From Chloroflexota bacterium (GTDB lineage: Bacteria; Chloroflexota; Dehalococcoidia; Lucifugimonadales; Lucifugimonadaceae): 64,000 bases of DNA. The notes under the pieces were generated by a model. The model made no database searches. It was not told the origin of the DNA and saw only the letters and a program-made list of their open reading frames with translations. The stretch is from NCBI GenBank assembly GCA_002719295.1, contig PBHC01000003.1:4300-68299 (forward strand). The letters are read 5' to 3'. Made by a program: the position numbers and the translations under genes. Positions within the stretch are counted from its first letter, which is position 1. Every line of letters starts with the position of its first letter. This document shows, piece after piece, positions 34,610 through 37,182 of the stretch.

Positions 34610-34750
34610 GTTTATAAACTATTCTTTTTTATTTTCATCTAATCAAGTTTGATTTATTTATGAAAGTTACAAATAGGTTTCTATAACTTTATAATCGTAT
34701 TCAAATCATATAGTATTTATATATCTAGGGACATTACCCTTCAATATTAA

Positions 34751-34762
34751 CGCGCGCGCGCG
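34751..34762. repeat. perfect (CG)6 alternating tract directly before the gyrB RBS
   Basis: aaCGCGCGCGCGCGggagaccacaaaaaATG. Confidence 0.95.
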
Positions 34763-34776
34763 GGAGACCACAAAAA

Positions 34777-37182
34777 ATGGCTAAGAAAACTAAGAACAAT
34801 AATCACCAAGGATCCGAGGATTATAGCGCTTCAGACATTACAGTAATGGAAGGCTTAGAAGCTGTTAGAAAAAGACCAGGAATGTATATAGGTACTACTG
34901 GGCTTGAAGGAGTACAGCATCTAATTCACGAAATTGTCGATAATGGTGTTGATGAAGCAATGGCTGGCTTTGCCACAAAAATTAGGATTATTTTAAACAA
35001 AGATAAATCAGTAACCGTAATTGACGATGGAAGAGGTATTCCTGTAGATGTTCATGAAAAAACAGGTATGTCTGCAGTAGAAACGGTTATGACAACTTTA
35101 CATGCAGGTGGAAAATTTGGAGGAAAGGGCTATCAAGTATCAGGAGGACTTCATGGGGTTGGTGCTTCTGTTGTTAATGCCTTATCCACATGGCTAAAAG
35201 TGGAGGTTCGTAGAGACAAAAAAGTGTGGAACCAAACATATTCAAAAGGTAAAGCCGACGGGCCTTTAGAAAGCAGACCTCAAACTGATGAAGATTTAAA
35301 GGGAACAGGAACTTCTGTAACCTGGTTGCCAGATACAGATATTTTTCCTGAACTTGATTATTCATATGAAGCAATTACTACTAGGTTTAGAGAGATGGCT
35401 TATCTAAATCAAGGGTTAAATATTGAATTTATATCTAATTACCACGATCAGCTATGGCCTCACAATCAAGTCTCTTTCAAGTTTGAAGGAGGGGTGCAAA
35501 GTTTTGTAAGAAACTTGAATAAAAAAAGGTCAGCTATTCATGAAAATATAATGTATGCAAACGAAGTAGTTGATGATATTGTTGTTGAGACTGCTATCCA
35601 GTACAACGAGTCATTCATAGATAACACTTTATCATTTACTAACTGCATAAGAACGGCAGATGGCGGAACGCATGTAACTGGATTTAGGTCTGCATTGACT
35701 CGGGTTATAAATGACTATGGAAAAAAGCAAGGGTTTTTTAAAGAAGACATTGCATCATTGTCTGGTGAAGATGTTAGAGAAGGTTTAATGTGTGTCGTTT
35801 CTGTAAAAGTTAAAGACCCTCAATTTGAAGGTCAAACTAAAGGAAGACTAGGGAACCCTGAGGTAAAAGGTGCTGTTGAGCAAACTATAGGTAAGCGATT
35901 AAGCGAATTCATTGAAGACAACCCTGAAGACGCAAAAAGAATAATAAACAAATCAATGACTTCAGCGAGGGCTAGAGAAGCAGCTAAAAAGGCTAGAGAT
36001 CTCATAATTAGAAAAAACGCATTAGACGGCGGTTCACTTCCAGGAAAGTTGGCAGATTGTTCAGAAAAAGACCCCTTTAGGTCTGAATTATATATTGTTG
36101 AGGGTGACTCAGCAGGAGGCTCTGCAAAACAAGGAAGAGATAGAAATTTTCAGGCAATATTACCCTTAAGGGGAAAAATACTTAACGTTGAAAAAGCAAG
36201 GCCTGAAAAAATGTTAAATCATGAGGAAATAGTTGCCTTAATAACAGCAATAGGAACCGGTTTAGGAGAAGATTTTAACCATGAAAAGTTAAGATATCAC
36301 AGGGTCATTATAATGACGGATGCTGATGTGGATGGAGCTCATATTAGAACCTTACTATTGACCTTCTTTTATAGAAACATGCCTGAACTTATAGCTAACG
36401 GCAATCTGTACATTGCACAACCCCCTTTATATAAAGTTTCTAGAGGCAGGACAAGTAAATGGATTTATTCTGATAATGATTTAAACAAATGGATTTCAGA
36501 AAAAATTTATAATAATTTCTCTATAATTCATACTGAAAATAATAAAGAAATTAAGGGTGCAGCAATAGGAAAATTTATATCTGATGTTAAATCTTTTAGT
36601 GAATCTAAAGATATTGCAAAAATATTAAATATTGAGGAAGATGAATTTCTTAATTTAGCTTCAAAAAGCGCAGAATTTAGTTCAAGTAAACGCATAGAAG
36701 AAACACAAGAAGATAACATTCAGCCTAATCTTTTTGATTCTGCTGTCACTGAAGAAGAAGAAGGAGAAGAAGCATTAAAAGAAATTAATGAAACCATTTC
36801 TAATAATAATCATCCTTCAATAATTAAAGCTCAAAACATCTACCCTGAAATAAAATCTTATTTGGAAGGATCTTTTTCTATAAAGAAAAATGACGAAATA
36901 TTAGAAAGCGATTTATTATGGGATTCAGTGATCACAACTTTAGAAAACAATGCAGATAAATCTGGATTTAATATACAAAGATATAAAGGTTTGGGAGAAA
37001 TGAACCCAGATCAATTATGGGACACAACCATGGATCCTGGTAATAGGGTAATGTTGAGGGTTTCAGCTGAAGATGCTTTAGCGGCTGATGACATTTTTAG
37101 AACCTTAATGGGTGATGATGTAGAGCCAAGGAGAGATTTTATAAAAACAAATGCTCTTGAGGTAAAAAACCTAGACGTCTAA
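34777..37182 (+). CDS. gyrB: DNA gyrase subunit B
   Basis: [41 protein letters not shown]. Confidence 0.97.

Follow-up and report, generated by a model that had tools for sequence, protein, structure and literature searches.

Alternating CG and purine-pyrimidine tracts upstream of gyrA and gyrB in SAR202-type Chloroflexota: a candidate supercoiling-driven B-to-Z switch

What is a perfect (CG)6 repeat doing directly upstream of a gyrase gene in a genome that avoids CpG? The question is raised by a window of 64,000 nucleotides (nt), the whole stretch of DNA analyzed here (G000:C3:4300-68299), from the assembly G000 (1,271,263 bp in 20 contigs, 81% complete) of an uncultured marine Chloroflexota bacterium; this assembly and all genomes compared with it are metagenome-assembled. 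The repeat lies in the 229 bp between gyrB and the divergent gene for an E1 dehydrogenase alpha subunit (E1-alpha; Table 1). A preliminary description, made from the letters of the window, proposed it as a candidate Z-DNA supercoiling sensor seated on the gyrB ribosome-binding site. On comparison of genomes, a conserved cis-element appears to be specific to the gyrase genes in a SAR202-type Chloroflexota family, and the (CG)6 tract to be one of its copies. The tract is far beyond chance, and it is almost certainly a selected element of gyrase gene control.

Two alternating CG tracts, one before each gyrase gene

The coordinates given in the preliminary description for the (CG)6 tract and its run into GGAG ahead of the gyrB ATG were confirmed. 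GGAG begins 14 nt before the start codon, leaving a gap of 10 nt. A Z-DNA-forming sequence needs uninterrupted pyrimidine-purine alternation over ~10-12 bp or more, ideally as d(CG)n, and the gyrB tract offers 12 bp of pure CG. The statement that no comparable tract occurs elsewhere in the window also held, as the gyrB tract is the sole match to (CG)5 there and none of 100 dinucleotide-preserving shuffles contained any match. A contig from an independent public DNA run (X2, record 24) spans 34389-34887 with 1 differing letter and no indel, and 14 DNA runs contain at least 0.81 of the sampled words. The tract is no assembly artefact, a doubt raised in the preliminary description, because it is carried by all 13 genomes of the genus as well as by the independent DNA contig.

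G000 has a GC content of 30.7% and a CpG observed/expected ratio of 0.38, and CGCG, for which base frequencies predict 709 copies, is present 99 times. Genome-wide, runs of at least three CG or GC units gave five matches at four loci, namely two bare GCGCGC hexamers, the gyrB tract and G000:C5:24642-24661. The last is the one place besides the gyrB tract with a run of at least 3.5 CG units. Its letters are CGCGCGC, TT and GCGCGCGCGCG (7 + TT + 11), and it sits 44 nt upstream of an open reading frame (ORF) of 864 amino acids that encodes GyrA (Pfam PF00521, 1e-162, and six GyrA C-terminal repeats). Genome searches returned a single GyrB match and a single GyrA match. G000 has just two long alternating-CG tracts, one before each gyrase gene. 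The link to gyrase control is stronger than was apparent from the window, because gyrA bears the sole other such tract of the genome. A C5 cytosine methylase, which would favor Z-DNA, had no match in G000, although absence is not implied in an incomplete genome.

The 9-mer GCGCGCGCG of alternating G and C was listed in all 13 genomes of the genus sample (genus g1, including G000), and (CG)5 was present in all 12 genomes other than G000. The 9-mer formed 27 site clusters, among them duplicate gyr copies of G001 and G011, and each of the 27 was followed, 10-75 nt downstream, by the start of gyrA or gyrB. Such tracts are not common elsewhere in these genomes. Upstream of gyrB, an alternating tract of 10-16 bases was found in 13/13 genomes, three of which had a single T replacing C. 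Upstream of gyrA, the arrangement CGCGCGC(GC)-TT-GCGCGCGCGCG-TGGGAAA was nearly unchanged in 12/12 genomes, with a 5' arm of 7 or 9 nt and an identical spacer block in all 12; the 13th genome (55% complete) had no gyrA match. The gene topA had no match in G000 and was checked in five relatives instead, where a run of (CG)4 or longer was found at 0/5 of the topA loci (~3-4 kb).

The computational tests by which the preliminary description would have been refuted, concerning read support, presence at gyrB in relatives and rarity elsewhere, all went in its favor. Two parts of the preliminary description did not stand up to this comparison. The position of the tract on the ribosome-binding site is not conserved within the genus. 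The distance from tract to gyrB ATG ranges from 10 to ~51 nt and GGAG directly follows the tract in 6/13 genomes, and since these flanks are not kept, contact with the ribosome-binding site appears to be incidental and to lie outside the conserved element. The GyrB N-terminus (MAKK...) is kept across the genus. In addition, the divergent E1-alpha promoter, proposed as a contributor of local negative supercoiling, cannot be required, because the gene upstream of gyrA is co-directional, the gyrA element lying just past its stop codon.

Family-wide occurrence and placement at the promoters

To extend the comparison, gyrA upstream regions of 64 family genomes and gyrB upstream regions of 44 were surveyed for strictly alternating purine-pyrimidine runs of at least 11 nt with a GC content of at least 50%, within ~250 nt of the start. 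A run was present in 42/64 genomes at gyrA and in 28/44 at gyrB; in order-level outgroups it was found in 0/6 for gyrA and 0/6 for gyrB. The background was 21 such runs per 84.9 kb of family loci, about half of them inside the gyr upstream zones. At gyrA, the genera with a run were g1 (12/12), g6 (5/5), g7 (9/9), g33 (6/6), g30 (4/5), g11 (2/3), g12 (2/3), g32 (1/1) and g3 (1/1). At gyrB, they were g1 (13/13), g33 (4/4), g13 (3/3), g7 (5/8), g30 (1/2), g31 (1/1) and g32 (1/1). The runs of relatives were 11-29 nt long, and across the family CG drifted to CA or TG with purine-pyrimidine alternation mostly retained. Every CGCGCGC 7-mer was at gyrA in 3/3 genomes of g6 and in G053, which are small AT-rich genomes of two other genera. 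Among five small g6/g11 genomes, the sole CGCGCGC away from gyrA was CCGCGCGCGCCGG at G022:C11:77832-77840 (L217), in an intergenic setting with a rho-like ORF preceding it and a putative secreted protein following.

The tract at gyrA was located within a promoter-like arrangement. The pattern TTGCGC-N8-GGGAA(A)-N3-TAnnnT fitted 24/24 gyrA upstream regions of g1, g7 and g11, the search pattern itself having fixed the letters TTGCGC, GGGAA and TA. In the last hexamer, T, A and mostly the final T were kept while the interior was free (TAGTTT, TAACTT, TAGAAT, TAGTGT, TAAAAT and others). The same GGGAAA-N3/4-TAnnnT was present in gyrA upstream regions of g6, g13, g32 and g33, and after the addition of 19 further g7 sequences the strict pattern was found in 20/28. 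Our reading of the element is a promoter of the sigma-70 type whose spacer is 17 nt long. The predicted -35 of G000 would lie at L001:4650-4655 and the predicted -10 at 4673-4678, with the tract at about -45 to -22; the tract takes in the -35 hexamer TTGCGC, half of the spacer on the upstream side and ~10 bp farther upstream. In g6, the tract lies entirely upstream of a -35-like hexamer GAGACA. GGGAAA was rejected as a general promoter signal, since the 314 copies of TGGGAAA in G000 are mostly in coding-like contexts and few are followed by TAnnnT.

What is kept at gyrA is the alternation more than the letters. When 24 gyrA promoters were aligned, the 8 columns of the spacer varied mostly by C/T or G/A, whereas all 19 variable control columns (N3, -10 interior and 12 nt downstream) contained transversions. 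Of 20 distinct gyrA promoters of g7, 15 alternated perfectly for 14 nt over the -35 and spacer, with nine different letter strings among them. The minor-state cells of g7 comprised 32 transitions and 9 transversions in the spacer against 34 and 30 in the controls (Fisher p 0.013, the cells not being independent).

The capacity to form a hairpin differed between the two genes. As cruciforms, the gyrA elements of the genus have predicted stems of 7-14 bp and DNA minimum free energies (MFE) of -11 to -23 kcal/mol, and the predicted gyrA folds differ between species. One relative has a perfect palindrome of 37 nt at gyrA, including TTTCCCA/TGGGAAA. As an inverted repeat, (CG)6 at gyrB gives a stem of 4 bp in which GGAG is not involved. 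For the gyrB tracts of g7 (CGCACACACGCA and similar) and part of g33, stems of 2-4 bp and DNA MFE of 0 to -2.9 kcal/mol were predicted, the g7 tracts alone having stems of 2-4 bp and 0 to -1.9 kcal/mol. These comparisons suggest that alternation is the property shared by both genes and that symmetry is an extra at gyrA.

At gyrB, two candidate -10 elements were recognized, here called P1 and P2. In the genus alignment, no block is better kept than P1 (TTTATA/TTGAAT, 16-17 nt, TAGTAT; 34688-34716), which precedes the tract by 34 nt. A TGgTAGAAT-type element is present in other genera, where the alternating tract follows ~27-35 nt downstream, or ~75 nt in g7. An xAnnnT hexamer like that of P2 can be read 2-4 nt before the tract in 13 genus sequences, which is of modest significance in AT-rich DNA. 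At both genes the tract is found in or beside the candidate promoter, over the -35 and spacer at gyrA and 3 or 34 nt after the candidate -10s at gyrB. A consensus scan of 34500-34800 returned 2 promoter-like sites against a shuffle mean of 2.0, and because the scan did no better than shuffles, the promoter assignments rest on comparative reading.

Three RNA libraries and one DNA run, out of 24 public runs listed, were compared with the locus as contigs, whose ends are not true 5' ends. One RNA-library contig, X15 record 2 (depth 30.8), begins 7 nt after the P2 hexamer, at 34754, and another, X18 record 14 (single-read-sized), begins at 34744. There was no RNA cover over 34612-34743 (none over 34612-34753 in X15, before 34744 in X18 or before 34854 in X16), but gaps between contigs prove nothing, and the gap over P1 neither favors nor rules out P1. 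The contig starts give a weak hint that the gyrB mRNA starts at or just before the tract, and the gyrB tract would lie close to or just downstream of the predicted transcription start.

Further features surround the two tracts (Table 1). A small inverted repeat between P1 and the gyrB tract is replaced in genus relatives by other complementary pairs in the alignment (AGAG/CTCT and ATAGTA/TACTAT), which looks like hairpin covariation in the gyrB leader. The paired GGGAAA motifs near the E1-alpha start are kept in the genus and also present in g6; viewed on the minus strand they lie inside the promoter/start region of E1-alpha, and they are the same motif as in the gyrA promoter spacer of several genera. 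The RNA-library contig X15 record 1 (1607 nt) stops at 34571, 24 nt upstream of the E1-alpha ATG (34547), and this end fits the candidate minus-strand promoter. Upstream of gyrA, L001:3497-4614 (G000:C5) holds two co-directional ORFs, for a PspAB-family protein and a 189-amino-acid protein without a Pfam match. A tRNA-like sequence is kept ~80-110 nt upstream of topA in 5/5 genus genomes (L172-L176). Three TGGGAAA sites of G000 share identical 65-nt contexts between C12 (~155-168 kb) and C19 (~7-12 kb), namely C12:163573/C19:7091, C12:168112/C19:11630 and C12:164896/C19:8414, so that the assembly seems to contain a duplicated stretch.

Table 1. Features at the gyrB locus of the window (positions in window coordinates)
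Feature	Position	Strand	Basis
(CG)6 alternating tract CGCGCGCGCGCG	34751-34762	.	read from window letters
GGAG, likely Shine-Dalgarno of gyrB, abutting the tract	34763-34766	+	
gyrB, 801 amino acids	34777-37182	+	Pfam PF00204 (7e-59), PF00986, PF01751 (Toprim), PF02518 (HATPase_c)
E1 dehydrogenase alpha-subunit gene, divergent from gyrB	33558-34547	-	PF00676 (7e-88)
P1, candidate -10 TAGTAT; -35-like TTTATA at 34688-34693, 17-nt spacer	34711-34716	+	predicted
P2, candidate -10 CAATAT, 3 nt upstream of the tract	34742-34747	+	predicted
Small inverted repeat (AGGG...CCCT), able to form a hairpin, separating P1 from the tract	34727-34740	+	predicted fold
Two GGGAAA motifs, within TTGGGAAA (34572-34579 and 34590-34597, 18 nt apart)	34574-34579, 34592-34597	+	
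Candidate E1-alpha promoter: TTGACA 34609-34604, 17 nt, GAAGAT 34586-34581	34581-34609	-	predicted from the letters

Proposed mechanism and competing explanations

We tentatively regard a supercoil-driven B-to-Z switch (or a cruciform at gyrA) that damps gyrase expression as the likeliest mechanism, its chance of being right falling slightly short of even. The tract would most likely act as DNA. Beyond a local negative supercoiling of about sigma -0.04 to -0.05, it would flip from the B- to the Z-form, and the palindromic gyrA version could also extrude a cruciform. The flip at gyrA would destroy the geometry of the -35 and spacer, that at gyrB would obstruct initiation or early elongation, and with both flips less gyrase would be produced. 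In relaxed DNA, the tracts would be back in the B-form and gyrA and gyrB would be transcribed, giving homeostatic, relaxation-stimulated expression. Exclusivity to gyrA and gyrB, the keeping of alternation over letters, the gyrB tracts that do not form hairpins and the placement at the promoters all count in favor of the B-Z switch.

The energetics were estimated with a two-state model, with two general background values, 0.33 kcal/mol for each CG base pair and the customary superhelical constant. With a junction cost of ~10 kcal/mol, as given in a passage of PMC8053131, a 12-bp tract was estimated to flip at sigma of about -0.04 to -0.05, absorbing 2-3 turns. Such a threshold would be within reach of transcription-driven or excess-gyrase supercoiling, as a homeostatic sensor needs.

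A number of points weigh against the B-Z switch. The estimated flip threshold is beyond the steady-state unconstrained supercoiling of E. coli. A tract of 12 bp is short, and strand opening in flanks of 70% AT would compete with the flip. Because the 2-3 absorbed turns cannot alter global supercoiling, any effect must be local occlusion, and the position of the tract relative to the predicted promoter differs between gyrA and gyrB. The two candidate -10 elements of gyrB and the RNA contigs from 34744 and 34754 leave its start position ambiguous. Alternation is broken in 5/20 of the g7 gyrA spacers, and since transitions preserve the purine-pyrimidine class by definition, transition bias accounts for part of the pattern. 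Outside the genus, gyrA tracts exceeded class-preserving shuffles in hairpin propensity (20 tracts, mean z -1.9, 11/20 below -1.64), although such shuffling also spreads G and C out of the tract and is uninformative for the pure-CG genus and no more than suggestive elsewhere; within the genus, the flanks (TCCC...GGGA) lengthen the inverted repeat of gyrA. Given these two findings, symmetry may also be under selection, which fits a cruciform or a dimeric protein. Finally, the run is missing at gyrA in g5 (0/5), g13 (0/6) and eight single-genome genera, and at gyrB in g6 (0/3), g11 (0/1) and seven single-genome genera.

Some of the same observations could be explained by an operator of a DNA-binding protein that co-regulates gyrA and gyrB, such as a dimeric repressor, a nucleoid protein or gyrase itself. 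Positions over the -35 (gyrA) and at about +1 to +40 (gyrB) are those of classic repressor sites, the gyrA inverted repeat of the genus has symmetric flanks and in one relative extends to the perfect palindrome, the GGGAAA adjoining the gyrA tract recurs twice upstream of gyrB, and the confinement of one motif to exactly two genes of linked function is a regulon-like pattern, as a dedicated regulator would produce. A protein site is nevertheless hard to reconcile with letters that change at 5-6 of 8 spacer positions while alternation stays, with many non-palindromic gyrB tracts, and with a tract length and arm spacing that vary in the genus (gyrA 5' arm 7 or 9 nt, gyrB 10-16 nt). No candidate regulator gene turned up, although no search for one was made; we consider an operator rather unlikely. 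It is also conceivable, and in our estimate quite unlikely, that no alternative DNA structure forms and that the tract adjusts the promoter by mechanical means, serving at gyrB as a GC-rich discriminator and initial transcribed region and at gyrA as a spacer with the special twist and flexibility of pyrimidine-purine steps, and in either case making initiation or escape supercoiling-sensitive. GC richness alone needs no strict alternation, yet alternation is kept, and both the g6 gyrA tract, wholly upstream of the -35, and the g7 gyrB tract, ~75 nt downstream of the -10, lie outside the regions that such tuning needs. The RNA contig starts at 34744 and 34754 would place the gyrB tract of G000 at about -3 to +9, weakly in line with mechanical tuning. 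Spacer sequence is reported to affect supercoiling sensitivity (PMC8695583), and the relaxation response of PgyrA, which is the promoter of gyrA in E. coli, maps to ~20 bp around the -10 (passages in PMC6170449). The GC content of the discriminator is a known determinant of the supercoiling response, but GC-rich discriminators are described in the same text as repressed by relaxation, the opposite of gyrase homeostasis (excerpts of PMC8422995).

If the tract acted as RNA, the 5' leaders would influence mRNA stability, processing or translation by way of a GC hairpin or of a self-complementary stretch that dimerises. This reading has to contend with the position of the gyrA tract, upstream of the predicted start and overlapping the -35 and spacer of a promoter kept over several genera. 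A strong fold is predicted for the gyrA element in the event that it is transcribed (-28.8 kcal/mol, z -3.35), and the only variation in its 5' flank is C/T facing the G's of GGGA, which both G-C and G-U pairing would permit. The gyrB tract is very probably transcribed, being near the ATG and covered by RNA contigs from 34744 or 34754, and the second small hairpin before it has different complementary letters in relatives. Against this, the (CG)6 stem does not pair with GGAG, and the gyrB leader folded from three candidate 5' ends was no more stable than shuffles (z -0.34, +0.18 and +1.44, the first for the whole leader), which together with the 4-bp stem leaves the RNA fold beside the ribosome-binding site, offered as an alternative in the preliminary description, a weak one. 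The non-palindromic gyrB tracts of g7 and g33 cannot fold. An Rfam scan of both leaders (L001, L032; E up to 1) matched no family, gyrA or other, the sole row being RAGATH-25 (20.4 bits, E 0.37), whose gathering score is 49. We judge an RNA mechanism very unlikely. Hardly credible is an origin by chance or assembly artefact, or a role as a terminator of the upstream gene or as a slippage-prone phase-variation repeat. Simple repeats can arise by assembly or slippage, but no shuffle out of 100 matched and thirteen independent genomes and independent DNA contigs carry the tract. The gyrA element is found just past the stop codon of a co-directional gene, as a terminator might be, and at gyrB no terminator is expected because the upstream gene is divergent. 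An intrinsic terminator or attenuator, which needs a U-tract after its GC stem, is contradicted by the lack of a terminator-like site (0 in 34500-34800 by the consensus scan) and of a U-tract, with GGAGACC following at gyrB and TGGGAAA at gyrA. A phase-variable repeat, whose copy number would differ between close strains, is likewise contradicted by the invariance of the gyrA spacer block in 12/12 genomes and the absence of indels in the 4 runs compared; the range of 10-16 nt at gyrB is one across species.

A broader proposal, possible but on the whole doubtful, is that bacteria have repeatedly and independently evolved alternating purine-pyrimidine tracts as a B-Z switch in the promoters of both gyrase subunits, where it senses torsional stress directly. 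If true, Z-DNA would have its first natural regulatory role in bacteria and relaxation-stimulated transcription a concrete mechanism, joining two old questions, that of supercoiling sensing by gyrase promoters and that of a natural function of Z-DNA in bacteria. The present case is unusually clean in that a CpG-avoiding genome keeps pure (CG)n at exactly two supercoiling-setting genes, while relatives keep the alternation.

Comparison with known systems

In the passages available, PMC13463272 and PMC6700405 treat Z-DNA and gyrase in general terms only. A full-text literature search found no description of a natural alternating tract at gyrase promoters, and a search for SAR202 together with gyrase returned unrelated papers only. 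A structured RNA upstream of gyrA is known as the gyrA RNA motif of Pseudomonas, an Rfam family. The Chloroflexota element shares with it the location upstream of gyrA, but it has no Rfam match and lies upstream of the predicted start.

Short alternating tracts have been connected with promoters and supercoiling in two other settings. In the bop promoter of Halobacterium, Yang et al. in 1996 reportedly described an RY box, a stretch of alternating purines and pyrimidines that is supercoiling-sensitive and linked to non-B DNA. It is said to be, like the tracts described here, a natural short alternating tract in a promoter; however, it is archaeal, belongs to an unrelated gene, is reportedly stimulated by supercoiling and is not known to be connected with topoisomerase homeostasis. 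In plasmids, engineered (CG)n tracts, the work of Peck and Wang in 1985 and of Rahmouni and Wells in 1989, are said to act as supercoil-driven B-Z switches and transcription blocks. CG repeats are also called a 'torsion absorber' in a passage of PMC8053131. The likeness to such inserts lies in the sequence class and in the proposed physical mechanism. Engineered tracts are artificial and usually longer than 12 bp, whereas the Chloroflexota tract is natural, family-conserved and confined to gyrase genes.

The same genes are involved in E. coli, where the gyrA and gyrB promoters are stimulated by relaxation (Menzel and Gellert 1983, 1987, as cited in passages of PMC6170449 and PMC8422995). The proposed logic is also alike, with gyrase expression dropping when DNA is too negatively supercoiled and with a determinant in or beside the core promoter. 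According to a passage of PMC8422995, the activation of gyrA and gyrB by relaxation is not explained by promoter opening, and Z-DNA is among the competing transitions named there. Transient negative supercoiling coupled to divergent transcription inhibits PgyrA of E. coli (passage in PMC6170449). The two systems differ in that the E. coli determinant around the -10 is, in those passages, without an alternating CG tract and of debated mechanism, whereas the Chloroflexota feature, with its predicted response to supercoiling, is a Z-prone tract at the -35 and spacer of gyrA and near the predicted start of gyrB.

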